Of a DNA stretch of 64,000 bases, positions 10,925 to 34,700 are shown piece by piece. A model generated the notes under the pieces. It was given only the letters and a program-made list of their open reading frames with translations, ran no database searches and had not been told where the DNA came from. Source of the DNA: Candidatus Sumerlaeaceae bacterium (GTDB lineage: Bacteria; Sumerlaeota; Sumerlaeia; Sumerlaeales; Sumerlaeaceae). Position 1 is the stretch's first letter; each line of letters opens with the position of its first letter. A program made the position numbers and the translations under genes. The stretch spans positions 3,850-67,849 of the forward strand of contig JBPCLP010000034.1 in the NCBI GenBank assembly GCA_051003195.1, written 5' to 3'.

Positions 10925-11173
10925 TCAGTAGGTGCGTGGCACGTCAGCTGTCGCGTACGTCCACAGAATCCGCGTGCCCGAGGATGTTATATGCTCGACC
11001 GTCAGCACCTTACGCTCCGGATCAAGCAGATCGCTTTCAAGCCGTGCAAGCGTCTTCGAGCCGGTCGTCATGCGAACGTTCCCAGAGGTTGATAAGGAAC
11101 TTTGCCCATAGACGGGAATGCTAGTCCCAAGGGCGATCACCATCGCGCCGAGACAACTCACCTTCTCGATCAT
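10925..11173 (-). CDS. Small secreted hypothetical protein (82 aa)
   Basis: MIEKVSCLGAMVIALGTSIPVYGQ signal-like; ATGA overlap with the stop of the upstream fusion gene. Confidence 0.5.
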   Translation of the reverse strand: MIEKVSCLGAMVIALGTSIPVYGQSSLSTSGNVRMTTGSKTLARLESDLLDPERKVLTVEHITSSGTRILWTYATADVPRTY

Positions 11174-14100
11174 GTGTGCCCACATGCTGCGTTTACTTTC
11201 AGCAGGGCGGCTCCGTAAGTATAACCTCCACCAAAGGCAGTGAGTCCCAGCAGATCGTCCGTGTGCAGTTCGGCCGAGTTCACGAGGTCGCGCAGGCATA
11301 GCGGAATCGTGGAGGAAGAAGTATTGCCAAGCATCCGGATATTACTGAAGACCTTTTCCGGCGCGACGCCGAGATCCACGCCAAGATCATTAAGGATTCG
11401 CTGATTTGCCTGATGCGCTACCACATAGCGCAGATCCGTCGGCAGGATTCCATGCGCGCGGCAGACTTCGCGCAACGATTCGCTTAACGCTGGTATGCTT
11501 TCCTGCCGCACGTGCCGTCCCTCGAGCTGGATGTACTCGCCCGTACCAATGGGCGGAACGGTCAGCGCGTTTTCCTGGTCGCCTTTCGCATGCACGCTCG
11601 GCCGCAACACTTCAAATGGAGCGGACTGTGCAAACGATTGACCGCCGACAATACAAGCGGTCGCGGCATCTCCGAAACCGATACACGTGGCAGCATTCGT
11701 CGGGTCCAGCAATGACGACAGAGTTTCGGCTGTCACCACGAGTGCGCGGCTTTGCGGGCTGGCTTTGATCAATCCATGTGCGATCTGTAACGCGTAAAGG
11801 AAACCAGTGCAGGTAGCGAGCACGTCAAAAGCGGGCGCGCGGCACGCCGGCAGTCGATGATTCAACTCCGCCAGGATGCTGCATGCGATGGATGGACACA
11901 CCTGACTGACGGAACTCGTTGCACAGACAATGAGATCCAGGTGCTGGAAGGCCGAAGGATCCGCATCATAACAGGCATCCACGGCTTTCATCGCCAGCGT
12001 AAATGCTGTCTCGCCCTTTGCCGCGCGGCACCGGCTTACGATGCCAATCTTGCGCAGAATATCTTCTTCGGTAAGTTCCGGAAAACGCGCAGCGAGGTCA
12101 GCATTGGTCGTGGTTTGCGAGCCCTGCGCAGTATAAACTCGGGAAAGGAATACGGCGGTGCTACGGCGCGGATCGATTATCTCCGGATTTTGCATAGAGG
12201 GAATTTCGCGGCGCACGATATCTTGGGGTAACACACGACGCTTAACGACCGGTAGTGGCCGGTTCGGGATGTGCATCTGGCCAAGGCCAGACGTGCGCGG
12301 CTCGGGCGTGCGGATGCTGATCAACGGCGTTCCGATCCGTACCATGTCGCCCGCGCTCACGAGTATCTTTTCTACGCAACCACTCACGGGCGCGTCCAGT
12401 TCTCCCGCCGCCTTGTCGGCTTCCACTTCTGCAATGGTATCGCCAACCTTGATCTCTTTGCCGACCTCCACGAACCATTGAAGGATGGTAAGCTGCTCAT
12501 CAGACGGGCTGGTGCCAAACGCCTCCACGACATACAGGTGCGGGTCAGTCTCAACTGCGTGGGCCGCCGCGGGCTCGACATCGAGGTCGAGCAGTTCGGC
12601 GGCGGCTTCCACGATCGCCGCCGCGCTTGGCAAAACCTCGAGCTGGTTGCCGAAATTGCACGGTATGTGCGTATCCGCGCGCGTCACGCGCCGCATGTGC
12701 ACCTGGCGGGAAGCCTTCTCGGCGATCGTTGCGCACACCTCTGCGCCAAATCCGACCGACCGATTGTCTTCGTGCACGACAATCAAATTCCCGGTCCGCT
12801 CGACGGAGGAGATCACGGTGGCTGCGTCCCAGGGCGAGATGCACCGCAGATCGATGACCTCGGCACTGACGCCCACTGCATGCAGATGCTGCGCTGCGGC
12901 CGTGCAGAGTGGCACCGTTCCTCCCCAACCGAGGATGGTGACCTCCGTGCCGCGGCGCATCACGCGGGCGCTGCCCAGCGGGACGATCAGGTGTTCGGGT
13001 AATTCGCGCGTCGCCAGTGAGCGGTCGTTCAGGCAACTTTTCGGATAGAGGAAAATCGTCGGACGCCGTGACGCGAACGCCGCGTTCAGCAGACCTGCCG
13101 CATCTTCGGCGTTTGATGGCATGATCACATCCAGTCCGGGGATGTGGGCTACTACCGATTCCAGCGTTTGCGCGTGAAAGGGACCCAGGCCGGCCTTGTA
13201 GCCGCCGCAAACCGCCATCACGATAACAGGGGCCTGCCACCCGCCATCCGTGCGCCAGTATATACTGGCCAGTTCGGCGGCAATCTGGTTGAATGCGAGC
13301 GGAATAAAATCCGCAAATTGCAGAAACGCGACCGGGCGCTTACCGGCAAGTGCGCGGCCAATGGATACGCCAATGATCGTGGATTCGGAAAGCGGCGAGT
13401 TCTCCACCTGCTCGGGAAATGCAGTACCCAGGCCGCGCGTGAGTCCGAAAACGTCTCCCTTCGGATCATCGATGTCCTGGCCATATAGGATGACGTCCTG
13501 ATTCGCGGCGAGTTGCGCCCGTAATGTCCGACGCATGGCTTCCAGCATCGTCAGGGGGCCATCCACCGGAGGCGCAGGTTCTGCCAAAGCGGGGGCTGCT
13601 ATACGTGGCAGCGGGGGTTTCGCGTCCATGCATGCAGTCGGCTCCGCCGCACGCTTCGCCCGCTCGGCGGCCGCATTGACCTCTTCGCGCGCGGTCGACG
13701 TGATTTCATCCAGCTCCTGTTGCGTCACGCCGAGCTGCAGCAAATCAGATGCAAGCACGGCAAGCGGATCGCCGGTACCCGCTGCGCTTGCAATTTCCTC
13801 AGCGCTGCGATAGACAGCCTGGTCGTCCGCGTTGGTGTGATCGTCCAGGCGTTCGGTTCGCAACACCGCGATGACCGGTGCGCGGTTCTCCCGCGCGCGC
13901 TGCACCATGCTGCCAAAGACCGCATAGCACGACTGCACACTCGAGCCGTCGAGGTAGTGTATCGGAATGCCCATGAATTCGTCGGCGAGGCCAGTCGGCA
14001 GTGAGTAAAACGTTTTGCCGGCCGTGCGTGTGCTGATGGCGAAGTAATTATCTTCGACCAGCCACAGCACCGGCAGATGTGACCGCACCGATTCCGCAAT

Positions 14101-14580
14101 AGCTTCCAGCACTTCGCCTTCCTGAGTTGTTCCGTCGCCAACGCAGCACACTACCACCGGCTGCCCGTTGCGCTCCTTTACGGCGGACGCAATGCCCGCT
14201 GCCTGAAGCGCGTTATTTCCCACCGGTCCCACGACGCTGAGCACATTCAGCGAAGGCGCACTCATGTGTGCGCTCATCTGGCGCCCGCGCGAGTGCGAAT
14301 CGTTTTTGCAAAAGAGCGCGAGAAAAAAGTCTTCCGCAGCGATTCCGCGCGCCAGCATCAATGCCTTGTCACGGTAGTGGCAATGCAGCCAATCCTGAGT
14401 GCCGAGATGCGGCGCCAGCGCGGCCGTTGCCCCATGACCAAAACCCGCCACATGAAAGAACGCTTCGCCGCGGTTGGTGAACTGCCGCTCGAGTTCGTCG
14501 ATACGACGTGCCGCCACCAGCGTATGGTATAGCGGCAACAGGGCCCGCGTGGTCGCGGTTGACAGGTCGACTGAACTCAT
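11170..14580 (-). CDS. Fusion: 2-oxoacid dehydrogenase E1alpha + E1beta + lipoyl domain + FabH-like 3-oxoacyl-ACP synthase III
   Basis: HCHYRD, GDGTTQEG...VEDN (TPP motif), HTNADD; NSPLSESTIIG, EVIDLRCISPWD; VEADKA lipoyl Lys; ATCTGF, HQAN, GNTSSS (Cys-His-Asn triad). Confidence 0.92.
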   Translation of the reverse strand: MSSVDLSTATTRALLPLYHTLVAARRIDELERQFTNRGEAFFHVAGFGHGATAALAPHLGTQDWLHCHYRDKALMLARGIAAEDFFLALFCKNDSHSRGRQMSAHMSAPSLNVLSVVGPVGNNALQAAGIASAVKERNGQPVVVCCVGDGTTQEGEVLEAIAESVRSHLPVLWLVEDNYFAISTRTAGKTFYSLPTGLADEFMGIPIHYLDGSSVQSCYAVFGSMVQRARENRAPVIAVLRTERLDDHTNADDQAVYRSAEEIASAAGTGDPLAVLASDLLQLGVTQQELDEITSTAREEVNAAAERAKRAAEPTACMDAKPPLPRIAAPALAEPAPPVDGPLTMLEAMRRTLRAQLAANQDVILYGQDIDDPKGDVFGLTRGLGTAFPEQVENSPLSESTIIGVSIGRALAGKRPVAFLQFADFIPLAFNQIAAELASIYWRTDGGWQAPVIVMAVCGGYKAGLGPFHAQTLESVVAHIPGLDVIMPSNAEDAAGLLNAAFASRRPTIFLYPKSCLNDRSLATRELPEHLIVPLGSARVMRRGTEVTILGWGGTVPLCTAAAQHLHAVGVSAEVIDLRCISPWDAATVISSVERTGNLIVVHEDNRSVGFGAEVCATIAEKASRQVHMRRVTRADTHIPCNFGNQLEVLPSAAAIVEAAAELLDLDVEPAAAHAVETDPHLYVVEAFGTSPSDEQLTILQWFVEVGKEIKVGDTIAEVEADKAAGELDAPVSGCVEKILVSAGDMVRIGTPLISIRTPEPRTSGLGQMHIPNRPLPVVKRRVLPQDIVRREIPSMQNPEIIDPRRSTAVFLSRVYTAQGSQTTTNADLAARFPELTEEDILRKIGIVSRCRAAKGETAFTLAMKAVDACYDADPSAFQHLDLIVCATSSVSQVCPSIACSILAELNHRLPACRAPAFDVLATCTGFLYALQIAHGLIKASPQSRALVVTAETLSSLLDPTNAATCIGFGDAATACIVGGQSFAQSAPFEVLRPSVHAKGDQENALTVPPIGTGEYIQLEGRHVRQESIPALSESLREVCRAHGILPTDLRYVVAHQANQRILNDLGVDLGVAPEKVFSNIRMLGNTSSSTIPLCLRDLVNSAELHTDDLLGLTAFGGGYTYGAALLKVNAACGHT

Positions 14581-17516: not shown

Positions 17517-19658
17517 ATGGACACTTCACGTAATACTGACACTACAGACTACGAGATTCTCGTAGGCACACCAAATGACGGTGCGGGGACGCCGGAATCT
17601 TCCAGTGCGTCTGCGCGATCCGAAGAGTCGCTCGCGCTACTGCCCGAAAGCACGGTTGGCTGCATCCAGGTAGTACGTCTCATTGGCTGCGGCAAAGTTA
17701 GCGAGTCCTGGTTCGGCGTCGATGCAAAGAACCAGCGCGAAGTGGTCGTTAAGGTACTGCGCAAGCCATGGTCATCCGATTCGACTGTGCTCTCATACTT
17801 CGAAAGTCAGCTTAACGCCATTCGATCACTGGATCATCCGAACCTTGCCAACGTGCTCGATGTCGGTCAGGACGATGGTATGCTTTTCTGGGTCACGGAA
17901 TGGGTAAAAGGCGGTTCAGTATGGCCGAAGATTCGCCGCAAAGGCCCCATGGAAATCCCGGCTGCGTTCAACATCGTCGATCAGGCTGCGGCAGGACTAG
18001 CCAGTGGTGCAGTGGCGGGGCTGGTTCACGGCGGACTTAAGCCCGAGAACATCCTGATGGAACGCTCCGGCGCGGTGAAGGTGTCGGATCTTGGAGTAGA
18101 ATTCGCCGCGCGCCAGCTGGTGAGTGGTACACCTGCCGCATCCACGCTTTGGCTTGCGGAGTTCATGGCTCCGGAAGTGCGGAGCGGCGGCATCCCGGAC
18201 ATCCGGAGCGACATCTATTCGCTGGGTGCCATCCTTCTCTACCTGGTCGCAGGTGTTGTACCGCACGATGGACTCCTGGATGCGACAAGTCCGCGGATCA
18301 CACCGGCACTGCGTCAGCTGCTGATTAAAATGACGGCTACCGGTCCGGATGACCGGCTACAGGATTACGGTGAACTGCGCGGCTGTCTCTCGGATGTCGA
18401 ATCGGCTATTGTTAACAGTGCGGCGACACCGGGCGATTTGATTTCGGCAACAGCGGCTCCAAAGAACGAGACGACCGGTGTGCACTCTGGGGATACACAG
18501 GAACTGTTTGAAACGCAAGAGACGCTATTCGACTCGGAGCCCGGTGAGCGGGCTGTCCCAGCGGCGGCCACTGCTACACGGCAGGATGCGGATCAGACGA
18601 CACCGGAACGAGAATTAACTGAAGCCGACCTTTTGCGAGCCTTTGCAAACGAGGAGGACCTGGTCTACAACGCGCCGGAACCGGCGCCCACTCCGATCGA
18701 TTTAGCAACTGGCGACCCTTCGCACAAACTAGTTTCGCAGACATGGGCGACACCGGCACGTCCAGCTAAGTCTCGAAAGCTGGCGGTTAGTGCGGTCGCA
18801 GTGCTCGCGGTCGCAGCAGCCGGCGCGGCCGCATGGTTCCTGACTCAAGGCAAGCCGGAGCCAAAGAAGGTCGTCGAAACCAAGGCGGTTGCACCTCGGG
18901 CGACAACTCCTCTTTCCCAACCCACCGTAACTGCGCAGGCAACACCTCTGCCGTCATCAGGTTCCGTTGTCACGCAGCCCGCTCCGCGAACGGTTTCAAC
19001 ACTGCCTGATCTTACTGCTGCGACGGCGACTCCGCCGCCCATTATCGATCCACCCGCCATTATTGCGCCGCCGGGAGTGGACCCCGTAGCGCTTGCTCAG
19101 ATCGCCGCGACACCCGCAAGTCCCGGGGTTGCAGTAAATTTTTTGCCGCACACGGCACCATCCTTTTCACCGGGAGCAGTGGCTGCAGCCGCCCGCACAG
19201 CTCCGGCACCATCCAATGATTCCATCATTGTCGACAATGCTGTTTCCGGCGCACTGGAACTTGATCCGCCATCGGGATGGCAGGCGTCACCGGAAACACG
19301 CGCATCGTATGCCGGGAGTTCGCTGGTTGCCATTACCGGCGGCGCCTCGCAGAAAGCTACGTTTACAGCTGATGTTCCGAAAGCCGGACGCTACCAGTTA
19401 TACATGTGGTGGGTTGCGCGTTCGTCGGATGTCAGGTCGGCAACCGTCCCGGTTACGATACATACTGCCACCGGACCGATCAACATCACGGTGGACCAGG
19501 TTAACAGTGACAGCGACTTTAATCTGATTGGTACTTATAACCTCAAGGCAGGCGTGCACCAACCGATCGTTTCTGTGAGCACAGATGGAATCAAAAATCC
19601 CAGCGGCAATGTGCATGTTTCCGTCGATGCACTTAAGCTAATTCCCAAAAACGATTAG
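17517..19658 (+). CDS. Transmembrane Ser/Thr kinase-like protein (probable pseudokinase) with extracytoplasmic golvesin/Xly-like carbohydrate-binding domain
   Basis: VVVKVL, LDHPNL, VHGGLKPENIL, VSDLG, FMAPE, DIYSLG; TM AVSAVAVLAVAAAGAAAWFL; C-terminal IIVDN...AGRYQLYMWW...DALKL. Confidence 0.85.
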   Translation: MDTSRNTDTTDYEILVGTPNDGAGTPESSSASARSEESLALLPESTVGCIQVVRLIGCGKVSESWFGVDAKNQREVVVKVLRKPWSSDSTVLSYFESQLNAIRSLDHPNLANVLDVGQDDGMLFWVTEWVKGGSVWPKIRRKGPMEIPAAFNIVDQAAAGLASGAVAGLVHGGLKPENILMERSGAVKVSDLGVEFAARQLVSGTPAASTLWLAEFMAPEVRSGGIPDIRSDIYSLGAILLYLVAGVVPHDGLLDATSPRITPALRQLLIKMTATGPDDRLQDYGELRGCLSDVESAIVNSAATPGDLISATAAPKNETTGVHSGDTQELFETQETLFDSEPGERAVPAAATATRQDADQTTPERELTEADLLRAFANEEDLVYNAPEPAPTPIDLATGDPSHKLVSQTWATPARPAKSRKLAVSAVAVLAVAAAGAAAWFLTQGKPEPKKVVETKAVAPRATTPLSQPTVTAQATPLPSSGSVVTQPAPRTVSTLPDLTAATATPPPIIDPPAIIAPPGVDPVALAQIAATPASPGVAVNFLPHTAPSFSPGAVAAAARTAPAPSNDSIIVDNAVSGALELDPPSGWQASPETRASYAGSSLVAITGGASQKATFTADVPKAGRYQLYMWWVARSSDVRSATVPVTIHTATGPINITVDQVNSDSDFNLIGTYNLKAGVHQPIVSVSTDGIKNPSGNVHVSVDALKLIPKND

Positions 19659-19794
19659 CTACGATCACAGAGTCGACGTCCAGTACTCCGGACGCGTTGT
19701 CTCGGTATCCATGCTGGAAGGCAATCGCCAAACTTCACCGGCCTTGTTGCAAAAATACAAGCGCGATTCGCTTCCTGGAAGGTAAATTCCGCGC

Positions 19795-21555
19795 TTAGCG
19801 CTCCGAAAAGTCGGCTGGCAACCGAACACGAAACGTTGATCCCTTGCCCTTTTCACTTTTGACGCTGATCTCGCCTCCAAGCATCTCACAGAACCGCTTG
19901 CTGATCGATAAACCCAGCCCCGTTCCGCCATGACGCCGGGTCGAAGAAGAGTCGATCTGCATGAAATCGTGAAACAACATCGCCACTTCTTCAGGCGTCA
20001 TGCCGATTCCGTTATCACGAATTTCGAAACCAATCCATTTCGGATCTTGCGGGTCCCGCTGCACACAAAGTGCGATCGTGCCCCGCTCTGTGAACTTGGC
20101 GGCATTACTCAAAAGGTTAAAGAGCACCTGCCGCAGTTTCGTTTCATCACTCTTCATGAATCCAGTTCCTGGTTCAACAACGGATGAAAGCTCATTGCGG
20201 TTTCTGGCCAGCAGCGGATGAACGGTTGCAACGACCTGCTCAACGACCGATCCAACTTCGAACTTGTTGATGTGCAATTCCATTTTGCCGGCTTCGATCT
20301 TCGAGAGATCGAGTATGTCGCTGATCAGCGAGAGCAGATGCCTTCCGGCGTTATGAATTTTGCCGAGATCGTTGGACACTGTATCGAGTTCCAGCGGCCG
20401 CACTTCTTCCTGCAGCATCTCAGCATAGCCAATTACCGCATTGAGCGGCGTGCGAAGCTCATGGCTCATATTTGCCAGGAATATACTTTTCGCTTTATTG
20501 GCGCGCTGTGCGGTTTCATACAGCCGCGCGTTGTCTATGGCTATGGCAGCCTGCGCAGCCACGCCAAGAATAATCCGTTCACTCCGTTCACTAAATATTC
20601 CGGGTTCCGGATGACCAAAGAACAATCCGCCGATGGCCTCGCCGGAACGGGAGATGACCGGAACTGCCAGGTAGCTACGAACGGGGAGATGCCCATCAGG
20701 CATTCCATAATGCGGCGCCATCTTACCATACCGTGGATCTTTTGTAATATCTTCCGAGCGCACAACGCCTGTCCCGTGGAACGTCGCATTAAACACATCG
20801 GTATTACGAGGTAGCCCAAATTTTTCAAAAGCCTCGCGAGGTGCGCCAGACAACGTATACAGAAGAAAGGATTCACCGTTATGGTTAACTACATTATAGA
20901 AGAAGGCTCCAAACTTTGCCCCGCTGAGCTGCGTGGCCGCGTCAGTAACCGCCTGGACCAGTGTTTGCAGGTCCAGGTTTGAAGCTATGGTAGTACCGGT
21001 CTGGTTTAACAGCTCGAGGATTCGCGTCTCATCGCGCAAAGCCTCTTCTGTTCTCGTGCGAAGTGTGATATCACGAAAGCTCCAGACGCGGCCAACCTTG
21101 CGCTCACCAATTCGTTGAATCGTTGAAAACCGCTCAACCACTCGGCCATCGGATAGCTCAAGCAAATCATAAGATTCGGGTGGTGATGTCTGGTATATCT
21201 GCTCCACTTTATCTCGAAACGTCTGTGGTGAGCTAAAGTGCCGAGTGGTCGATTCCAGCAGTTGTCGATGATCCGCGGCTCCCATGGCTTCCTGCGGAAT
21301 GCTCCACATCTCCAGGTATTTCGTGTTATAGCCGGTAATCTTACCATCGTCGTCCGTTACAAGGATTGCATCAGTGGTCGATTCGAGAGTCGCACGGAGC
21401 ATGGAAAGCGAGTGCGCCAGCTCTTCGCTTTTTCGCTCGAGCGCTTCCTTGGCCTTGAGCAGCTCCTGCTCGGCACGATTACGCGCGGCGAGAATGCTCT
21501 GGGCATTCTGCAGAGTCGCCGAACGCAGCAGCTCTTCCTCCAACTCCGGTTCCAT
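19795..21555 (-). CDS. Sensor histidine kinase (coiled-coil, PAS, GAF, HisKA, HATPase)
   Basis: AKSIFLANMSHELRTPLNAVIG, KLRQVLFNLLSNAAKFT, DNGIGM, GGTGLGLSIS. Confidence 0.93.
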   Translation of the reverse strand: MEPELEEELLRSATLQNAQSILAARNRAEQELLKAKEALERKSEELAHSLSMLRATLESTTDAILVTDDDGKITGYNTKYLEMWSIPQEAMGAADHRQLLESTTRHFSSPQTFRDKVEQIYQTSPPESYDLLELSDGRVVERFSTIQRIGERKVGRVWSFRDITLRTRTEEALRDETRILELLNQTGTTIASNLDLQTLVQAVTDAATQLSGAKFGAFFYNVVNHNGESFLLYTLSGAPREAFEKFGLPRNTDVFNATFHGTGVVRSEDITKDPRYGKMAPHYGMPDGHLPVRSYLAVPVISRSGEAIGGLFFGHPEPGIFSERSERIILGVAAQAAIAIDNARLYETAQRANKAKSIFLANMSHELRTPLNAVIGYAEMLQEEVRPLELDTVSNDLGKIHNAGRHLLSLISDILDLSKIEAGKMELHINKFEVGSVVEQVVATVHPLLARNRNELSSVVEPGTGFMKSDETKLRQVLFNLLSNAAKFTERGTIALCVQRDPQDPKWIGFEIRDNGIGMTPEEVAMLFHDFMQIDSSSTRRHGGTGLGLSISKRFCEMLGGEISVKSEKGKGSTFRVRLPADFSER

Positions 21556-22617
21556 CTAGGAAGTCCCGATCACGTCCGCGGCCATCTTTGTTCCCTCCAC
21601 GCGTGCACGTATTTTGGCGAAAGCGGTTTCGCGGGTTGTCGACGTATCGTCACAGAACGGCGAGAATCCGCAGTCGTCGGTGGTACCCAGTTGCTCAATC
21701 GGGATGTACTCTGCTGCCTCGAGGACGCGATCACGGACCTCTTCGGCTGTATCGATGCGAGGATTAATAGGGGCGACGACACCGACAAAAATACGCTGGT
21801 CAGGTTTCATATACTTACGGATCATTTTAAGCACACGCACTCGATCTGGTTCACCCGCAAGTGCGATATAGAAATTGCCGGCTTTCAACTCCAGCAGGCT
21901 TGGCAGTAGCTCCGCGTAATCCACGTCGGCACTGTGCGTAGAATCCCGGTCTCCTCCCGGGCACGTGTGCACGCCGATTCGTTTACGCTCCTCCGTTGAG
22001 AACCGCGACAGCGCCATGTTGTTAAGATCGATAAAACTGTTCAGCAGGTCTCCTGTTGGATCAATTTTGATCGCCAGCCGACCTTCCGTAAAATCGATCT
22101 GTACTGTATGCGCTCCCTTGTCAAAGCAACGGCGCACTTCCTTCTCATGCTCATTAAGCAGGTCCTCGATGAATTGCTCACGCGGGTAACCTTCGATACC
22201 CTCAGGCGGGTAGAGCAGGCTCAATGCGGATGGTGAAATCACCGCCTGCTTAATGGGCTTTTTCGCATAGCGCATCGCAACATCGAGATACTCATCCGCA
22301 TAGCGCTTATACCGGAAGGGGCCTGCTGTCAGCATAGGCATTCGCCGTACATGCCCGGCGATGAATGGAATTTTAAACCCGTCCGGGCAGGTATTGGAAA
22401 GTCCGTGCACGGAGTACGTCCAGAAATTGTGATACTTTCTCTGCTCACCATCGGTAATGACGGGCGATCCAGTCTCCTCGAACTGCTCCACCGTTTCGCG
22501 AATTGCCTTTTCATAAAGCGGGGCAAGCGACGGCGCGCTATCGCCCTCTCGTTCGATTGCCTGGATTAGTTCTACAGGGCGGGGAATACTGCCAATCGGT
22601 TCAGTTGGAATCATCAT
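21556..22617 (-). CDS. Cobalamin-independent methionine synthase II (MetE catalytic-domain-only) family protein
   Basis: TEPIGSIPRP, ITDGEQR, VQIDFTEG, GVHTCPGG (HxC), GVVAP, DDCGF (Zn Cys). Confidence 0.85.
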   Translation of the reverse strand: MMIPTEPIGSIPRPVELIQAIEREGDSAPSLAPLYEKAIRETVEQFEETGSPVITDGEQRKYHNFWTYSVHGLSNTCPDGFKIPFIAGHVRRMPMLTAGPFRYKRYADEYLDVAMRYAKKPIKQAVISPSALSLLYPPEGIEGYPREQFIEDLLNEHEKEVRRCFDKGAHTVQIDFTEGRLAIKIDPTGDLLNSFIDLNNMALSRFSTEERKRIGVHTCPGGDRDSTHSADVDYAELLPSLLELKAGNFYIALAGEPDRVRVLKMIRKYMKPDQRIFVGVVAPINPRIDTAEEVRDRVLEAAEYIPIEQLGTTDDCGFSPFCDDTSTTRETAFAKIRARVEGTKMAADVIGTS

Positions 22618-22802: not shown

Positions 22803-23582
22803 TCAATTGAAAAATACCTGCTCTTCATACTGCAGCAGCAGCGAACGAAGTGGCTGCACCAGCTCATTAAAAAGCAGTGCTATTTCCCGCGAAAGGGTAG
22901 ACCTGCTAAATAGGATACAAACGAAAAGATCTCCTTTGGGGAGAATTCCGCCGAAACCAATTACCGATCGAATGCCATACGGGGTTACAAAGTCCGATTG
23001 AGACGGGATAAACTCGCTGCCGCGTGCATCCGGAATAAAGAACACATTGAGCGCCGGTTGCGTGACCATCAGGACCTCAGGATTTGGCTTCACCACCCAG
23101 TCAAGGTCGCAGCCAAGCTGCCTAAACAAATTCGCAATCATTGGCGCACGCTCTACCACCTCAATGCTTGTAAGAGCTATTGCTCGATGCGATCCCGACA
23201 GGTGGCGCGAGTTCCATGATGGCATAATGCCGGCCGTTCCCAATAGCGTAAGGCATGGGGATTCCGGTGTATGCTTTTCAGCCGGCGCAGTGCGACGGAC
23301 ATACCCTTTCAGGTCCTCAGTCAGCTCGCCAAACGGGTGTGTTTTAAAGATGCGAACCAACGGGCAGGCGCGATCGGACGTCTGTGGATCAACAAGCGAA
23401 TGGTGCAGTAGCGTGCAGACCCTTTCGGCGGCAGATTCCATGCTCCTTGATGTCAACGCGAGCCCTGTAATCGACCGGCTGATTTGCTCAATATCCCTCG
23501 TATTCAGGATGGTGAGGCCGTATGCATTGTTTGTAGTACTGGCGCTCATGCTCACGGTTGTTGGCGTTGTTATAGAACTCAT
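22803..23582 (-). CDS. Stand-alone GAF-like uncharacterised protein
   Basis: SMESAAERV, ACPLVRIFKTHPF, CLTLLGTAG, PMIANLFRQLG, FVTPYGIRSVIGFGGILPKGDLF; recalled as a domain also found fused to kinases. Confidence 0.6.
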   Translation of the reverse strand: MSSITTPTTVSMSASTTNNAYGLTILNTRDIEQISRSITGLALTSRSMESAAERVCTLLHHSLVDPQTSDRACPLVRIFKTHPFGELTEDLKGYVRRTAPAEKHTPESPCLTLLGTAGIMPSWNSRHLSGSHRAIALTSIEVVERAPMIANLFRQLGCDLDWVVKPNPEVLMVTQPALNVFFIPDARGSEFIPSQSDFVTPYGIRSVIGFGGILPKGDLFVCILFSRSTLSREIALLFNELVQPLRSLLLQYEEQVFFN

Positions 23583-23641: not shown

Positions 23642-25342
23642 TTAATTCGCTCCATCCAGCGGAGCCGGTTCCATTGTGACAACCAGTTCAGTCGTCAGGC
23701 CCGCAATGATCGCTGCATACTGCGTTCGCGTCGCCTGGCCGCTTGCATCTACGCGAATTGGCGGAGTCCATCCGTTTGCTTCCACAGTGAATGGCTGCGA
23801 ACCGGGACGAAACCCCTTTAGTGCCGCAAAGCCATTACCGTTGGTTGTCGCCGACCAAAGTTTTTCATCGAGATACAAAGTCGAGACGCCTGTGGACCAA
23901 AAGACGTTGGGCCAGGCAGCCAGCCTTGCGCCGATGATGGGCTGGTTGGAGCTGTTCACTACGCGCACGCGTAAGCCACCGGTCTCTTCCATGACCAGGA
24001 TAAACAGCGCCGCATTTGGGTCGGAGTTCAAATTGTACACCTGGTTCTGTTCGTACGGTCGCGCACTCAGCTGCCGATGCGCGGCAATGTATCCGTCACA
24101 CAAGCCGATTATCTCGCCGGGTCCTTCGGGAAGCCCGGGAATCTCAAAACTCCCATCCGGCGCAATGTCAGCCCCGCCTTCGCGCATCGTAGTTGCAGTG
24201 GAACCCGCAAGCGGGGACCCCGGGGGCGGCCACTGTGCGGCTGCCAGCACGCGGCCGTTCGCCACCGGACGCCGTACGTTGTCACTCAGCCGGCCTCGTA
24301 AAGTCAGACCGCGCTTCAACTGTACTTCCAGTTCCTTCGCTTCGCCTCCGCGCATTTCTATCGGGACCGTGTCGGAGTGCCACGTGATTCCATCCGGTGC
24401 TTTGTATTCCACCGTCAGCGCATGTTTGCCGTCGGGAACTGATTCGGTCACCTGGCTTCCGTCGGGCATATGCGACCAGTCTTCGGGCATCAGCGCGCCG
24501 GAAGTATGAGTGGCCGAAGACACCTTCGGCACAAACCCGAAAACACGCTGGGAGGGTGTATCCATGTATGCAGCGACGGTAAGCGTATTGCCCTTCCTGA
24601 GCACCTCGTCGCGCTCGGTGCCGTCCACGGGGTAGCTGAAAATCCGTCGTTTGGCATACCCCGGTTTGGAAGCCGTGAAGCTTATACCGATCGCCAACGA
24701 GATATCGGACAAAATGACCGGTGATGCCAGGTAGGCACGTCCTTCGGCGTCCGTAATCTCGGATGGCGCAGGCCCGAATTTCTTTTCGTCCCAGCCGCCG
24801 TGCGCGGTCTCGCGGGCCTGCTGCCCGTGGTGTATTCCGTCGACCAGCACCTGCACGCCCTCGAGCGGCTGGCTGGTCATATCGACCATGCGCACTGGCA
24901 CAAGCTGAAGCCCCCGGGCCTTCCATTTCTCCCGGCGGGTTTCAGTCGAATCGGTAGCGTCGGTTCCCGCTGCGCTGCCAGCGCGATTACCAAGACCCAC
25001 ATTGGACGCAAGCGCTCCCGATGGTCCGCGTAACGGGAGTTCGAAGGTGCGCAGCCGCGACGTCGTTTGCGCCGAACCGGAGGTAAAGCTGGCAGCGGCG
25101 ACCGTGGCCACGGCAACGCGAGGACTATGCTTCGTGCTCGCCACCGGCCCAGTCTCACGCAAGCGGGCGACCCGTGTCCCGGACTTCGAACGAACTTCAT
25201 GCGCCTCGCCGTTCACGGAGCTTGAAACACGTGCCTTATCGCCGCTCGAACGGAGCTGTACTGCCGCAATGACAATAGCCGCGCCGGCCACGAGAGCGAT
25301 ACCGGCTTTCCGCGCAAAGCCCTCGGTAGGATTAAATGCCAT
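23642..25342 (-). CDS. Membrane-anchored protein with carboxypeptidase-regulatory-like (prealbumin fold) repeats
   Basis: TM AGIALVAGAAIVIAAV; repeats VRMVDMTSQPLEGVQV, ITDAEGRA, LRGRLSDNVRRPVANGRV, VRVVNSSNQPIIGARL. Confidence 0.75.
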   Translation of the reverse strand: MAFNPTEGFARKAGIALVAGAAIVIAAVQLRSSGDKARVSSSVNGEAHEVRSKSGTRVARLRETGPVASTKHSPRVAVATVAAASFTSGSAQTTSRLRTFELPLRGPSGALASNVGLGNRAGSAAGTDATDSTETRREKWKARGLQLVPVRMVDMTSQPLEGVQVLVDGIHHGQQARETAHGGWDEKKFGPAPSEITDAEGRAYLASPVILSDISLAIGISFTASKPGYAKRRIFSYPVDGTERDEVLRKGNTLTVAAYMDTPSQRVFGFVPKVSSATHTSGALMPEDWSHMPDGSQVTESVPDGKHALTVEYKAPDGITWHSDTVPIEMRGGEAKELEVQLKRGLTLRGRLSDNVRRPVANGRVLAAAQWPPPGSPLAGSTATTMREGGADIAPDGSFEIPGLPEGPGEIIGLCDGYIAAHRQLSARPYEQNQVYNLNSDPNAALFILVMEETGGLRVRVVNSSNQPIIGARLAAWPNVFWSTGVSTLYLDEKLWSATTNGNGFAALKGFRPGSQPFTVEANGWTPPIRVDASGQATRTQYAAIIAGLTTELVVTMEPAPLDGAN

Positions 25343-25390: not shown

Positions 25391-28300
25391 TTATTCCAGT
25401 TGGGGTTGTGGTGCTGCATTTAACCCAGAGATGCGCGCAAGTTCATCGAACTCGAAATGGACCTGCACCTCGTTGCCTCCCTCAGGCACATCCAGATGAA
25501 GTCCGGGACCATCCTGCAGTCCAACCGTATATGGACCAGGTTCCAGAAACACTTCATAGTTGCCCTCGGGACCCAGCACCACCCGCCGCACATCTCCAAA
25601 AGTATTTTGTGAGGTGAAGTACAGCATATGCTTCGCCGTTGGATTAGCTTCGGCAGAATTGATCTGCACCCGCCCCGCAACTCGCACCAGGGCACGGAAG
25701 TCCACGTTCGCCGTCGACGACCTCCCGCGCACAAGAACGTTCTGGCGCTTCCGCAGACCCTTCGCGTCAGTTCCCCAAAGCGCCTCCGCAATTAACAGAC
25801 GGCTGCCTTCCGGCACGCCTTCGATACTGTAATGTCCCTTCTCGTCCGTGACAGCACTGCCGATCCAGCGCGCCATATCCTCGCTTGGATACACAACGAT
25901 CGTCGCATCAGCCAGGGGTTTTCCGTCCAGGCGTACCTGTCCACTCAGCAGCGTGACCGACTTGTTCATCTTAAAGTTCACCGTCAGCTTGCCTGACGCA
26001 GGCAGCTGTACGATCTGTGCCTGGTCCGAGTAATTAAGGTGCCTGGCTGAAATAACGACGATGGCGGACGGCAGGACAGCAATACTGTATCGCCCCTGAC
26101 TGTCGCTGGGTTTAGAGACCACTTCGAACTCGGCCGGCGTTGCGCCTTGCAATTGCACGTGGACATTCGCACCGGTGACAGGATCGCCGGTTTCCTCGTC
26201 GGTGATCCTTCCTTCGAGTGATGCACCGGTCGCCACTGGAAGTTCGAGTTCAAGATTGCGGCTCTCGGCTTTCAGCTGCGCAGCCTTGCTTTCGGAGTAC
26301 ATCGATTCATCATCCGTGGTAATTGCCGCTTTATACCAGCCAGGCTCCACATTCTCAAACAGCGCCTTGCCGAAACTGGCCTGCTGGTGTCGCACGCTGA
26401 CAAATTGACTTGGAGCGGGCTCGGTGGCAGTCGGCTTCCCGGTATTTGCGCGCAACAGCCACACAATGTACCGAAGGCTCTCCTCCGGCACAGAGGGAGG
26501 AGCGGTTATAGTGACCGATACGGAGGGATACGCCTTAAGTCGGATTTCATATTTCTGCTGCGGCAATGAGATATTCGCGGCGGTAAACGGCGCGAAGTCC
26601 CGATGGCGCACCACAATATTTTCTATGCTCGGGGCATTGAGATGAAATACGGTTCGCCCATCGAAGCCGGTCCTGCGTGTTAATTGACGGATACCCGACG
26701 TTTGTTTTTCGGTATCGCTGGTTACGGGAAAGATCTGCACAATCGCATCTTCAACTGCGGAGCCGGATTCTGTCAGAACCTGCGCAGTGAAAGCACTACC
26801 GGCCGGGAATCGGAATTCGATCGGCCGATTATCTTTTGCGAGCACCGTGATCTCTGTGGTTACCGCCGTGTCGTAACAGGGGTGCGTCGCTACAGCGCGA
26901 ACTTTCTCTGGGAAAGTGCTGTCCACCGAAAAGCTGCCTCTTGTGTCAGAGCGGCCACTTGCGACCAGGGTAGCGGAGTCTTGCGCCGACGCGAAAAATT
27001 CCACTCGTGCGCCATTCAGCGGCGCGCCATCAGCGTCGATGGCGCGCCCGGTCAGCGTTACCACCCGCTGCATCTCCACCACCAGTTCTTTTGGCGAGGT
27101 GGACGACGCCTCATAAGTTTGCGGCAGCATTCCCAGGAATGGCGCGGTTGCTCGAAGCTCGTACATGCCGGAGGGGAACACGGCCATTTCGAACTGCCCG
27201 CTGCTGTTGGAGCGAACCGTGAACACCGATGGGCGGCGCATTTCGCCATAACCCTGGTCCACATCCTCTACGGTCCTCAGCACAATATCCGCACCGGGAA
27301 CAGGGCGATTACCGGGTCCCACGACGCGACCACGCACCAGCGCGCGGGGCGTAAGCGCCGCCGTAATGGTGGTGATGTCGCGTGCCGGCTGCGTCGAAAT
27401 CGTTATCCGGTCACCCCACTGGCCGTTCTCGCGCGAGCGGAAAGCGTAGTTCAGCCCATCGAACGCCAGCGAAATGTTCCGGAATGCATCGATCTTTTCA
27501 AACCGGAAGTAGCCCGCCGCATCCGTGCTGGTGCTGGCTGGGCTGTCTGCTTCAAAAGTGTTCAGGCGCAAAGGCATATTTGGAATGGGAGCGGAAGTCT
27601 CCGCATTGAGAAACTGTCCTGCAATCGTGACCCCCTGGTTGTGCAACAGCACCAACTCGCGCCCTTTATCACTGCGCCCATTCTGCACAACCGGCGCCGC
27701 CTTTGGTTTCTCCAATGGCGACGGCGTTGTATTGAACTTCCACTCCGCATTCTGCAGCATACCGAATGCGAACTCGCCCCTTATATCCGTTGTCGAGTAG
27801 AGGCGCATCAGGCCTGCATGGGCTTCGACGATTATCCCAGGCTGGGGCTGACGGTCCTTCGACCCCAGGAGTATTCCCGTCACGGTGGTGCCGGAAGACG
27901 GCAGCGTGACTGACGTCTCCTGGCCTGTGGTAGCCAGTCCAATTTCCGGCGGCAACCCGGGGGCCTGCACCAGGAAGCTATACTGGCCGGGAACGAGTCC
28001 ACCGATGCGAAAGTAGCCGCGTGCACCGGTGTGGCCATAAATCGGTGCGAGAGGAGGGGGTTCCCTGGAAGCGTCAGCTTCCTCGCCAGTGTCGATCGGC
28101 AGCACAGGGCCAATTGCGGCGTCGATGATGGTCGTCCCTTTGTCATCATAAAGTCTGCCGCCGATTTCTGCATGCAGTCCCAGCGCAATCGTCTTTGGCA
28201 GCGGCTTCTGGCCGTCCAGAGGGACGGTTACATACCGTGGTTTCGATAACAGAAGAAGGCTTTTTGAAGTTGTCGGATTCGCCGTAAACGTTCCATCCGC

Positions 28301-28570
28301 GCCCGTGATGGTAATGGTCGTATACAGGTCCTCCGCTGGGCGCATCTGTAGCATGCTCCACTCCAGCCGCGCCACAAGGACGTCTGACAGCGGATAGCCC
28401 ATTTCGTCCGTCACTTGCGATTGCGCGACGGCGGACGCAATATCTGCCACGACAAGCGTACAAGCCAGGATTGAAAACGCGACGCTTCTAAAAACCTTCA
28501 GCAAAAAGCCGCACCTCGACCTAAGGGATATGAAAAGCCCGAAGGTAATGCCGGGGGCGAACCTTTGCAA
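25391..28570 (-). CDS. Large secreted protein with multiple carboxypeptidase-regulatory-like repeats
   Basis: Repeated [IV]xGxVxxxxgxPvxgAxV...TDxxGxFxF units across 1059 aa; signal-like N-terminus. Start uncertain. Confidence 0.75.
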   Translation of the reverse strand: MQRFAPGITFGLFISLRSRCGFLLKVFRSVAFSILACTLVVADIASAVAQSQVTDEMGYPLSDVLVARLEWSMLQMRPAEDLYTTITITGADGTFTANPTTSKSLLLLSKPRYVTVPLDGQKPLPKTIALGLHAEIGGRLYDDKGTTIIDAAIGPVLPIDTGEEADASREPPPLAPIYGHTGARGYFRIGGLVPGQYSFLVQAPGLPPEIGLATTGQETSVTLPSSGTTVTGILLGSKDRQPQPGIIVEAHAGLMRLYSTTDIRGEFAFGMLQNAEWKFNTTPSPLEKPKAAPVVQNGRSDKGRELVLLHNQGVTIAGQFLNAETSAPIPNMPLRLNTFEADSPASTSTDAAGYFRFEKIDAFRNISLAFDGLNYAFRSRENGQWGDRITISTQPARDITTITAALTPRALVRGRVVGPGNRPVPGADIVLRTVEDVDQGYGEMRRPSVFTVRSNSSGQFEMAVFPSGMYELRATAPFLGMLPQTYEASSTSPKELVVEMQRVVTLTGRAIDADGAPLNGARVEFFASAQDSATLVASGRSDTRGSFSVDSTFPEKVRAVATHPCYDTAVTTEITVLAKDNRPIEFRFPAGSAFTAQVLTESGSAVEDAIVQIFPVTSDTEKQTSGIRQLTRRTGFDGRTVFHLNAPSIENIVVRHRDFAPFTAANISLPQQKYEIRLKAYPSVSVTITAPPSVPEESLRYIVWLLRANTGKPTATEPAPSQFVSVRHQQASFGKALFENVEPGWYKAAITTDDESMYSESKAAQLKAESRNLELELPVATGASLEGRITDEETGDPVTGANVHVQLQGATPAEFEVVSKPSDSQGRYSIAVLPSAIVVISARHLNYSDQAQIVQLPASGKLTVNFKMNKSVTLLSGQVRLDGKPLADATIVVYPSEDMARWIGSAVTDEKGHYSIEGVPEGSRLLIAEALWGTDAKGLRKRQNVLVRGRSSTANVDFRALVRVAGRVQINSAEANPTAKHMLYFTSQNTFGDVRRVVLGPEGNYEVFLEPGPYTVGLQDGPGLHLDVPEGGNEVQVHFEFDELARISGLNAAPQPQLE

Positions 28571-31401: not shown

Positions 31402-31767
31402 TGACGGCCTCCCCTGAAATTGATATTATGGCTGATAGTCCTATATTCCGTGCGTCCTTCTCAAGCTAAATCGCTCGCGAGTATCTGAAGGCGTGCCTGA
31501 ACACTTGCGGGAGGACCGCCCAGTAATCCGACGGAAACGTTTTGGAGCAGCGCTGCTCTTTAGTCCAGGCGTACTTCTGCCGCTTCATTTTTCTTGTGTT
31601 CAGCAATTCGCGATGCCTTTGAATGTCTTCTTCATTAGACTTCGCAGCTTGGGAATGACGCATGAGCTTCGACGTCGGCTGCGACGCCGAGAGCAAATGC
31701 GAACTCTTGCCCGCTCGAACAAACTCCCACATCCTCACTCAGAGCCATTTATCCAGGGGTGTGTTCC

Positions 31768-34700
31768 ATGCGTTTTATTTCTCTATCCGTTTCTTTGCTT
31801 TCCGTAGTTTTGGTTGCAGCACTCTGCCCAAGCCCGGCACTCGCTGCCGGCAATGCTCCACAGCCGGCAATTTGCACTCGCGGTTGCTGGGGAGCTAGTG
31901 CGCCCGGCTCGATCTCGTACATGTCGACGCTCAACCGCGCCATCGTGCACCACACGGCAGGCAACGAGTTCAACACGACCGGCTATGAAGCATCAAAGGC
32001 CAACGTAAGAGCCATCCAGAGCCTGCACAAGAATACGAACGGCTGGTCGGATATCGGCTACCATTTCCTCGTCGACAAGTTCGGGTACATTTTCGAGGGC
32101 CGCTACAACTCGATGGGTAGTCTGCCCCGGGGCGCACACGACGGCTTTAATACTAACAGCTTCGGCTTTAATGTCATGGGCTACTTTCACCCGACGGTGA
32201 ACAACGTCCCTACCGCCGCAATGATGAATTCGCTGTATGATATCATCGCGTGGCGCATGCCTTCGGCCTGGCGCCCCTATGGCTCGCCCGGTGGCACTTA
32301 CGGCGACCTTGGGAATACGGTTGGTTATGTCGATAGTCACCGTCGCGTCAAAGCAACGGCCTGCCCAGGCGATAACGTTCACAATCCATACATAGGCAAT
32401 AACGTGAACGCCGGGACCATCCGCGCTGAAATCAACAACCGTATCATCGGCGGCACGCCATGGGATGCGACCTTCAATAATCAGTCATACGTCGGCGCAA
32501 TGTATCCCGGCCAGGCAGCAACCTTCTGGGTCGAATATAAAAACGTGGGCACGAACACATGGACGCCGGGCGGCGGAAACCCGACACGCCTGGGTACAAG
32601 CAGCCCGCGAGATCGCTCAAGTGCGTTCTTCACTTCCGGAAACTGGCCCAACGCCAGCAGGCCTACTGATGTGGATGCATCCACAGGGCCTAACGGCATC
32701 GGGCGATTCAGTTTTGTCGCAACCGCCCCACAGACGCCGGGCTATTATGTAGAAAACTGGGAACTCGTCACAGAAGGCGTCTCCTGGTTCGAGGGCGCCG
32801 GAGACGGATCATGGTTCGGTATCGAAGTCGCCAAACAGGGCGACAACATCCAATGGGAGTGCGAAGATTACAGTCGCGGCATCCACGCCGCGAATAACGT
32901 GGATTATTTCGATACCACCGCTGGCAACACGGGCGGTGCCTATCGTTCCCAGGACGTCGATATACGTGCGTGCGTCGAAGGCGGTTACCAGGTCGGCTGG
33001 ACAGAACCAGGCGAATCGCTGAGATATTATTTCTACGGAGGCGGCAACAGCTACCGCTTTGCTGTACGTTATTCGAATGGATCGGCCGCCAATGCATCCG
33101 TACGCCTTCGCGTCGATGGCGTTGACGTGGGCACCGTCATTCTGCCGCCAACTGCAAACTACGATACGATGGCGACGGCCTACACGCATGTCAGCATCGG
33201 TTCCGCCGCACTGCATGAACTGAAGATCGACGTCATGTCCGGCAACCCGGACCTCAACAATTTCCGCCTCGATAAGGTGTGGAACCCACCGCACAATTTC
33301 AGCTTTAATGCGCAGGGTTATGATGTGTGGGGCAGAAACGGTCTTTCGGCTATTAGTTGGACGGACTGCTGCGGCTGGCCCGGCATCATGTATACGGATC
33401 AAACCGGCAATGACGCGTTTGTGTACAGCGGCGCCACGAATTTCACCGGCGGTTCTTATGATCTCATTCACGTCCGTGTCTTCCCGCAGGGAGGCACCAG
33501 CGCCAGCCACAATATGCAGATATTCTGGCTGAACTCAGAGGATTGGGCGTGGAACTCTGCGAAGTCCTCGGATATCGTTTACTTCACCGCGCAGGATGCC
33601 TGGGCGGATGTGTACCTCTATGTCGGTCCAAACTCCGGATGGAACGGGAAAACAATCACCCAGCTCCGCCTGGACTTTGATAACACAAGTGTGGGTACGC
33701 GTTGGCATGTGGACTCCCTCAGTATCGAGCAACAACCCACCGCACCAGCAGCGCCTACCGGCCTCGCTGCAACGGCTGCATCTTCCTCGCAGATTAATCT
33801 CGCGTGGACGGATGCATCGAACAATGAGGAGAATTTTGTCGTGGCACGCAGCGCAACAGCCGGCGGGCCTTACACGGATCTCGCCACGCTGGGCGCAAAT
33901 GTAACCAGTTACTCCGACACCGGGCTTTCCCCGCTGACGGCCTACTATTATGTTGTGCGCGCAACCAACGCGGCCGGCTCATCGGCAAATTCAAGTGAAG
34001 CCTCAGCAACAACGTTGTCCAACATCCCGACTGCGCCATCCGGACTCGCGGCAGCTGCGACCACTCCTTATGACATTAATCTCACCTGGACTGACAATTC
34101 CGCGAATGAGGCGAACTTCGTGGTTGGTCGCAGTTCCGTGGCAGGTGGCCCCTATGTGGACATCGTGACCCTTGGGGCGAATGTCACATCTTATACCAAC
34201 AGTGGACTGAGCCCCAGCACCACGTATTACTATGTCGTCCGGGCGACGAATTCCGGAGGCTCTTCTGCGAATTCCAACGAGGCGAGTGCAACGACACTTC
34301 AGCAACCGCCCAATGCACCAAGTGCACTGGGGGCGACTGCAATCAGCTCGACACAGATTAACCTGGCGTGGACGGATAACTCCACAAACGAGGCAAACTT
34401 TGTGGTCGCACGTGGCTCCGCAAGCGGTGGCCCGTACACGGACATCGCCACGCTCGGCGCTAATGTAACCTCATACAGCAACACCGGCCTGACCGCCGCC
34501 ACGACGTATTACTATGTCGTGCGGGCGACCAATGCCGGTGGAGCGTCGGCAAACTCCAACCAGGCCTCTGCAACAACGTTACCTAATCCGCCCGCAGCCC
34601 CCAGTGGACTGGTCGCAACCGCGGCCTCGAATGGTACGCAGGTCGACCTCGGTTGGGCGGATAACTCGGGCAATGAAGCTAACTTCATCGTCGCACGCTC

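Follow-up and report, generated by a model that had tools for sequence, protein, structure and literature searches.

A MetE-like protein gene and a gene for a tagged histidine kinase form a conserved pair and a probable signalling module

The DNA analysed here is a 64,000-nucleotide stretch (the window) of contig JBPCLP010000034.1 (positions 3,850 to 67,849) in the Candidatus Sumerlaeaceae bacterium assembly GCA_051003195.1; the region comes from a sediment metagenome and occurs in DNA runs only. On the minus strand of the window a gene whose product resembles the methionine synthase MetE is followed directly by a gene for a histidine kinase (Table 1). Across the junction this strand reads GTG ATC GGG ACT TCC TAG ATG GAA CCG, which confirms the initial annotation of the region in placing the MetE-like TAG at 21558-21556 and the kinase ATG at 21555, in a common frame and with no gap between them. 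The common frame carries no extra information, because open reading frames (ORFs) that abut with a gap of 0 nt are necessarily in frame; it is the adjacency of the two genes, not their shared frame, that exceeds chance, and the in-frame TAG between them is incidental. The MetE-like open frame reaches back only to 22659, where a stop codon lies 42 nt upstream of the ATG, and a gap of 185 nt separates the gene from an unrelated 259-aa ORF directly upstream (22803-23582, minus strand); the latter has no Pfam or NCBIfam match and was not found conserved beside the pair in other genomes when the ORFs of 80 loci (see below) were clustered. Beyond the kinase gene a terminator-like hairpin probably marks the end of a two-gene operon, and a Ser/Thr kinase gene that converges on the pair has its end at 19658. 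The MetE-like and kinase genes thus appear to form a two-gene operon in the window.

The N-terminus of the window kinase reads MEPELEEELLRSATLQNAQSILAARNRAEQEL, and its first 45 residues, an acidic stretch followed by a helix, are here called the tag. Loci were gathered in two ways: a forward set of 80 loci from species genomes was retrieved by the MetE-like enzyme alone, and a reverse set of 80 metagenome loci was retrieved by the tag pattern alone, 78 of these having enough upstream sequence to be informative. In all 80 forward loci, which come from at least eight phyla and include Acidobacteriota, Burkholderiales, other Pseudomonadota, Planctomycetota, Verrucomicrobiota, Longimicrobium, Polyangia, Acidimicrobiia and Binatus among others, the next gene on the same strand opens with an acidic stretch and the motif (L/Q)LRSVA(L/I)QNAxSILLARQRAExEL. 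The reverse test found a MetE-like gene ending no more than 60 nt upstream of the tag in 77 of the 78 informative loci, and in the sole exception (L163) the last ~17 MetE-like codons remain directly upstream of the tag. Adjacency is kept in 157 of 158 loci over both sets, and the gene-neighbourhood check proposed in the initial annotation thus shows a pairing that is conserved in both directions. The enzyme and the tagged kinase are in obligate two-way genetic linkage and probably constitute a conserved two-gene signalling module. No third conserved gene was found by all-against-all ORF clustering of the 80 forward loci, in which only the enzyme and the kinase recur, and the tag occurs once per locus, its profile matching no second ORF in the 81 regions examined.

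The stop-start gap between the two genes in the 80 forward loci is -1 nt in 42, -4 nt in 10, 0 nt in 4 and +2 or +3 nt in 17, so the two genes overlap by 1 or 4 nt in 52 of them, and a Shine-Dalgarno (SD)-like motif lies 3-12 nt before the kinase start, within the last enzyme codons, in 55. The usual junction in the relatives consists of GGAGG or GGAG in terminal Gly-Gly codons and then TGATG, TAATG or TAGTG; the in-frame TAG-ATG of the window is a minority variant. This is the arrangement of translationally coupled operon junctions of the ATGA or TGATG type, in which the stop codon overlaps or touches the start codon and the upstream gene contains an SD-like motif, and in itself the geometry is nothing unusual. 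Its conservation bears out the tight translational coupling put forward in the initial annotation, as far as coupling can be predicted from sequence.

An AlphaFold2 (AF2) model of the window kinase has residues 3-59 as a single helix that runs into a PAS-like fold, with a predicted local distance difference test score (pLDDT) of 93-98 over residues 1-50. The initial annotation had the kinase opening with a coiled coil in place of a sensor domain; the N-terminal helix is indeed present in the model, but it is followed by a PAS and a GAF domain, and these by HisKA (2.7e-20) and HATPase_c (7.8e-31) domains (Pfam). The conserved tag residues L10, S12, V13, A14, N17, A18, A24, R25, R27, A28, E29 and L32 fall on one stripe of the helix. 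Among the loci, identity at tag codon positions 1, 2 and 3 is 0.76, 0.82 and 0.43, respectively, and all synonymous codons are used at invariant residues; these values indicate selection on the tag at the protein level. An RNA- or DNA-level explanation was considered and rejected, as third codon positions vary freely.

The protein bodies behind the tag are far less uniform. In the genome loci 60 bodies have HisKA and 9 have HisKA_3, with a receiver domain in 53 (of 73), and in the metagenome loci 38 have HisKA, 18 HWE_HK and 12 HisKA_2 (of 60); several unrelated PAS types come after the tag, and there are four phospho-acceptor families in all. Kinase bodies are therefore swapped behind a constant tag. 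Enzyme distances track tag distances with a rho of 0.36 (p = 0.001), compared with 0.15 for kinase-core distances. A profile search found the tag neither in other kinases of the same loci nor in the second PAS/GAF kinase of the window. This second kinase (47674-50889, plus strand; 1071 aa) contains PAS_7, several PAS, GAF, HisKA and HATPase_c domains, and its core matches the tagged kinase with 287 bits; having neither the tag nor a MetE-like neighbour, it is a useful internal control. Against a set of 5.8 billion proteins the tag profile returned only fragments of less than 80 aa, which are too short to define architectures. We note that the window tag has LLRSATLQNA where more than 90% of its relatives have LLRSVALQNA, the difference lying at residues 13-14 (21514-21519), and that the window enzyme has M95 and L135 where its relatives have R95 and M135 (M135 being a clade-specific position); this is a single case, in which the tag and enzyme changes may be compensatory.

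Homologues of the MetE-like protein number more than 8000 in the databases, the best 120 being 77-83% identical to it. At least 484 species-representative genomes from at least eight phyla carry a confirmed relative, and hundreds more are found in metagenomes. Carriers of the pair include metagenome-assembled genomes assigned to Chthoniobacter, Schlesneria, Ramlibacter, Paucimonas and Usitatibacter. Amino acid identity averages 79% across 69 loci from many phyla, and the four-fold degenerate sites of the gene are 0.42 identical where 0.34 is expected from composition. These sites are thus near saturation, so the uniformity of the protein reflects very strong purifying selection; recent horizontal transfer as the cause of the ~80% identity was rejected on the same grounds. 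In relatives with 59-66% identity the downstream signalling gene is still tagged or tag-like. Cultured Streptomyces and Trichlorobacter lovleyi have relatives with 57-60% identity, whose genes stand alone in metabolic contexts. In Pseudoalteromonas piscicida strain 2515 the gene for a 51% identical relative overlaps one for a PAS-GGDEF protein. No tagged kinase comes next on the short contigs examined for relatives with 49% identity or less, nor on those examined for some that have lost the zinc ligands (P0124, P0137). The coupled clade and the stand-alone relatives have 129 conserved positions in common, the whole active site included, and differ at 17. Of these clade-specific positions, R60, Y62, H63, N64 and W66 come just behind the DGE motif; others are A252 and a group at 81-93.

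A few distant relatives were noted in other settings. A 47% identical protein (P0160, on a contig of JGI 3300047160) is encoded 22 nt downstream of a gene for a 1628-aa regulator with REC, STAND-NTPase, MalT-TPR and GerE parts, which is possibly another association of the wider MetE-like family with signalling proteins. Two relatives with 46-53% identity, P0183 and L170 (P0146, GCA_054859025.1), lie in apparently eukaryotic gene models, one being a 1185-aa multi-domain protein and the other the product of an intron-containing gene on a 1.9-Mb contig beside LRR_ComC/EGF genes; the wider family is thus not confined to bacteria.

The only Pfam domain of the MetE-like protein is PF01717 (Meth_synt_2), which matches residues 4-319 with 44.7 bits against a cutoff of 21. 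The N-terminal folate-binding barrel, PF08267, is absent in the Pfam scan, and the initial annotation was right both in this and in its reading of the HxC and C zinc ligands, which are present as H217-x-C219 and C316 and are invariant in the family. The zinc ligands of MetE are His641, Cys643, Glu665 and Cys726 in E. coli numbering, and Ser433, Glu484 and Asp599, which grip the amino-acid end of homocysteine, are among the residues that define MetE-type catalysis (PMC7857596). The equivalents of the latter three are S10 in IGSIPRP, E58 in TDGEQ and D175 in VQIDF. Because these three residues, H217, C219 and C316 are all invariant, the protein probably binds zinc and a homocysteine-like ligand. 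The residue that most likely takes the place of Glu665 is an Ala both in the kinase-coupled clade and in the relative beside the GGDEF gene, and the stand-alone relatives have Glu or Gln there; E256, or the invariant D223/D225/H228 loop, are candidates to complete the predicted zinc site. An AF2 model of the protein has a pLDDT of 68.8 and a low-confidence segment at residues 57-105, and its top Foldseek matches are MetE catalytic domains, 1YPX and 3RPD (probability 1.00, template modelling (TM) score 0.61-0.68, 16-21% identity). In alignments to PDB sequences the similarity is closest to 1YPX (E = 1e-11), followed by 3RPD, which is the core synthase MesD (E = 3e-7 to 3e-8, ~17-19% identity), and by MetE (~1e-3).

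We lean towards the interpretation that the MetE-like enzyme acts as a trigger enzyme or co-sensor by docking on the N-terminal helix of the kinase. The enzyme would be made together with the cytoplasmic kinase through translational coupling and would bind the acidic stretch and the LLRSVALQNA...ARQRAE helix of the tag, which is continuous with the first PAS domain. A change in the state of the active site would then alter the contact with the tag and so the autophosphorylation of the kinase, the signal passing from the active site to the helix, the first PAS domain and the kinase. Candidate states are a bound homocysteine-like amino-acid thiol or methylated product, turnover, and oxidation or alkylation of the zinc-thiolate site. 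We infer that the two proteins bind, in which direction information flows and what the signal might be, with the enzyme as the supposed sensor and homocysteine or methionine as the supposed signal. The tag would be a portable handle for docking, grafted onto many kinase bodies in the course of evolution; the enzyme and the tag are constant and the PAS/GAF content and kinase type vary, a pattern to be expected if a common input feeds varied outputs.

Several observations weigh against the trigger-enzyme interpretation. Mutual information with average product correction over 108 enzyme-tag pairs gave nothing above noise. With PAS and GAF domains of its own, the kinase can do without an external sensor. 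The 80 loci have no conserved response regulator beside the pair, and a crude receiver-domain model found no receiver domain in the window. The GGDEF protein next to the P. piscicida relative has an N-terminus without a match to the tag profile, so that this case shows no more than proximity to a further signalling protein. In its C-terminal half the tag is like generic inter-PAS coiled-coil linkers (weak internal matches, and a match to NF045595), and true specificity is therefore limited to its first ~20 residues. The AF2 model of the enzyme is of no more than moderate quality, and the intact active site would fit an ordinary enzyme just as well, one that is merely coupled to a regulator in its synthesis.

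A more far-reaching form of the trigger-enzyme interpretation, which we consider improbable, is that the enzyme and the tag are a new portable sensory module with a substrate-gated tether, in which the tag docks on the open active-site face of a barrel that has Ala252 in place of the Glu that normally caps the zinc. A carboxylate of the tag might occupy either the free zinc position or the site of the folate polyglutamate tail, and a thiol substrate, or oxidation or alkylation of the zinc-thiolate site, would displace the tag and switch the kinase. Such a module would perhaps serve cyclic di-GMP signalling as well as two-component systems. To our knowledge this mechanism has been described for no histidine kinase.

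The main rival to the trigger-enzyme interpretation keeps the complex and reverses its direction, and we regard it as unlikely. The kinase helix would here be an activator, scaffold or inhibitor of the enzyme, acting like the N-terminal barrel of MetE or like the partner proteins (MesX, corrinoid proteins) of the core synthases; PAS and GAF signals would control methyl transfer, and phosphorylation would be a parallel output. The dependence of core MetE-like enzymes on partner proteins is known (PMC7857596), and the full retention of the active site, the much stronger constraint on the enzyme than on the kinase, the sensors that the kinases bring themselves, and the clade-specific changes beside the substrate loop and at the Glu665-equivalent position would all fit such a direction. 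The pattern of variation does not, as it is the enzyme and the tag that are constant and the PAS/GAF content and kinase type that are free, which is not one of varied inputs converging on one enzyme, and stand-alone relatives with the same active site occur without such a partner.

A further possibility, which appears unlikely as well, is that the two proteins are co-expressed without contact, the kinase controlling the enzyme or its pathway through an unlinked regulator and the helix being an inherited dimerisation coiled coil. Operons that join a regulator to its target enzyme are common, and the distal part of the tag does resemble ordinary PAS linkers. Such an operon poorly explains the specificity of the tag, however, since kinases that span four dimerisation and histidine phosphotransfer families and different PAS types all have the same first ~25 residues, and the motif is found essentially only beside the enzyme, paralogous kinases of the same genomes having none. 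The overlapping stop and start also suggest matched synthesis, which would be unusual for a bulk enzyme and a low-abundance kinase.

The initial annotation also considered stop readthrough or a split ancestral fusion. Some ribosomes would then read through the TAG to make a fusion of MetE and kinase, or a fused gene would have been split recently. The window does have both ORFs in frame with one TAG between them, and the same 0-nt abutment occurs in 4 of the 80 relatives, but the two genes have a common frame in only 15 of the 80 loci, the most frequent gaps (-1 and -4 nt) shift the kinase frame, the enzyme ends with any of the three stop codons (TGA 49, TAG 16, TAA 15), and ~160 loci contain no true fusion, so that what the geometry predicts to be conserved is coupling and not readthrough, and we consider both readthrough and a split fusion very improbable. 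Some long apparent fusions among the 50% representatives were rejected as frameshifted ORFs with junk sequence.

Equally hard to credit is an ordinary housekeeping methionine synthase that lies beside a kinase by chance: the databases name the homologues '5-methyltetrahydropteroyltriglutamate--homocysteine methyltransferase' and the zinc- and homocysteine-binding residues are present, but the folate domain is missing, no curated NCBIfam methionine-synthase model comes anywhere near its cutoff (best 63.3 bits against 406), identity to solved MetE, MesD and YxjG-like proteins is low, and adjacency to the kinase is almost invariably kept. A search for S-adenosylmethionine (SAM) and B12 riboswitches upstream of the gene found none, either in the window (with E up to 1) or at 11 diverse loci, a further argument against an ordinary metE. 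Thousands of database entries that carry the above name are probably not folate-dependent methionine synthases.

The closest structural relatives of the MetE-like protein are MetE and the core single-barrel synthases MesA-MesD (PMC7857596), with 1YPX (a Listeria YxjG-like protein) and 3RPD (Shewanella) as solved examples; the fold and PF01717 are common to all (TM ~0.65). With the core synthases it shares the single barrel of ~350 aa and the lack of a folate domain, and it keeps the HxC...C and Ser/Glu/Asp residues. It differs from MetE and the core synthases in its 16-21% identity to the solved members, in the position of Glu665, which is most likely Ala, and in its much higher conservation, any catalysis by it being putative. 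Its neighbour is an obligate tagged kinase in place of MesX (DUF1852) or a corrinoid protein, and MesX was not among the conserved neighbours of the gene in the 80 loci.

In the H-NOX/HnoK and NosP/NahK systems a stand-alone sensor protein and its kinase are encoded by the same operon. The present pair is like these in that the gene for a soluble protein lies immediately upstream of that for a cytoplasmic kinase, which it would presumably control by contact, and in that one putative sensor family goes with different output types; as expected of an H-NOX/HnoK-type sensor gene, the MetE-like gene is conserved beside the kinase (80 of 80 genome and 77 of 78 metagenome loci). It differs from them in that the partner is a TIM barrel with a predicted zinc-thiolate site and not a haem protein, and in that the kinase has a dedicated conserved N-terminal helix tag that is diagnostic of the partnership as well as PAS and GAF domains of its own. 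Known trigger enzymes and co-sensors include CysK with CymR or CysE, GlnA with TnrA, and DctA/DcuB with DcuS (reviewed in part in PMC6978683). By analogy with these, a protein with the fold of a metabolic enzyme would report the state of its substrate to a regulator by contact; the active site of CysK receives a short peptide from the end of its partner, and the tag might conceivably make a similar active-site contact here.

The literature searched describes neither a trigger enzyme with the MetE fold nor one that pairs with a kinase by way of a conserved N-terminal tag. The MetE-like/kinase pair is not described in the full-text literature searched, whose coverage is incomplete, and the core methionine synthase paper (PMC7857596) and the review of protein-activity sensing (PMC6978683) are silent on it; within these bounds the pair is undescribed, as the initial annotation supposed. 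What is known is the combination of an accessory sensor or trigger enzyme with a kinase, and what is new is the fold of the putative sensor and a diagnostic, portable tag for putative docking. For most cytoplasmic PAS/GAF kinases of soil bacteria the signal is not known. If the enzyme is an input, the MetE fold would join the short list of stand-alone kinase sensors, and sulfur-amino-acid, one-carbon or thiol-redox status would be linked to signalling. A docking tag that can be grafted onto unrelated kinase bodies would, if real, be useful for understanding and rewiring two-component specificity. The pair also offers an experimental handle, as a small-molecule site can be recognised in the enzyme-like protein and the helical tag, the first 45 residues of the kinase, can be synthesised or mutated.

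Table 1. Coordinates in the window of the MetE-like gene, the kinase gene and their features
Feature	Coordinates	Strand	Remarks
MetE-like coding sequence	22617..21556	-	353 aa; TAG stop (21558-21556) included; ORF listing, PF01717
Histidine kinase coding sequence	21555..19795	-	586 aa, cytoplasmic; no receiver domain; ORF listing, Pfam
Junction	21553..21567	-	Weak SD-like GGGA 21567-21564, TAG 21558-21556, ATG 21555-21553; gap 0 nt
Terminator-like hairpin and T-run	19759..19773	-	22 nt past kinase stop; consensus scan only
Predicted zinc-ligand codons H217-T218-C219 (HxC)	21961..21969	-	Invariant alignment columns; alignments to 1YPX, 3RPD
Predicted third zinc ligand C316	21670-21672	-	Invariant column
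Homocysteine-binding equivalent S10	22588-22590	-	Invariant; role from PMC7857596
Homocysteine-binding equivalent E58	22444-22446	-	Invariant; role from PMC7857596
Homocysteine-binding equivalent D175	22093-22095	-	Invariant; role from PMC7857596
RKYHNFW codons R60-W66	22420..22440	-	Densest clade-specific cluster, directly after DGE58 substrate motif; within low-confidence AF2 segment 57-105
A252 codon	21862..21864	-	Likeliest MetE Glu665 position; two PDB alignments give A252 or A254
E256 codon	21850-21852	-	Conserved in coupled, GGDEF-adjacent and stand-alone relatives; 2-4 residues past Glu665-aligned position
N-terminal kinase tag, aa 1-45	21421..21555	-	EPELEEE 21532-21552, LLRSATLQNA 21502-21531, then helix into PAS
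Kinase PAS domain	21043-21402	-	Residues 52-171; Pfam
Kinase GAF domain	20533-20976	-	Residues 194-341; Pfam
Kinase HisKA domain	20287-20493	-	Pfam
Kinase HATPase_c domain	19813-20148	-	Pfam

Among the other genes of the window, the 566-aa ORF at 23642-25342 (minus strand), which lies upstream of the pair, has a sub-threshold match to CarboxypepD_reg (30.2 bits against a cutoff of 32.3), and the 1059-aa ORF beyond it at 25391-28570 (minus strand) looks similarly repeat-rich, as judged by eye only. An extracytoplasmic function (ECF)-type sigma factor with Sigma70_r2/r4 regions is encoded at 52155-53981 (minus strand) and is fused to a C-terminal CarboxypepD_reg-like domain. Golvesin_C, a recently defined domain, occurs twice: in the Ser/Thr protein kinase encoded at 17517-19658 (plus strand), where it accompanies a long Pro/Ala-rich linker, and in a 1550-aa amidase_2/CBM35/fn3-repeat protein encoded at 31759-36411 (plus strand). 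The 1136-aa ORF at 11170-14580 (minus strand) joins a 2-oxoacid dehydrogenase E1 (E1_dh, Transket_pyr, Transketolase_C) and a lipoyl domain to a FabH-like beta-ketoacyl-acyl carrier protein synthase III, the latter represented by ACP_syn_III and its C-terminal domain; this unusual fusion would tie a branched-chain or 2-oxoacid dehydrogenase directly to fatty-acid priming.

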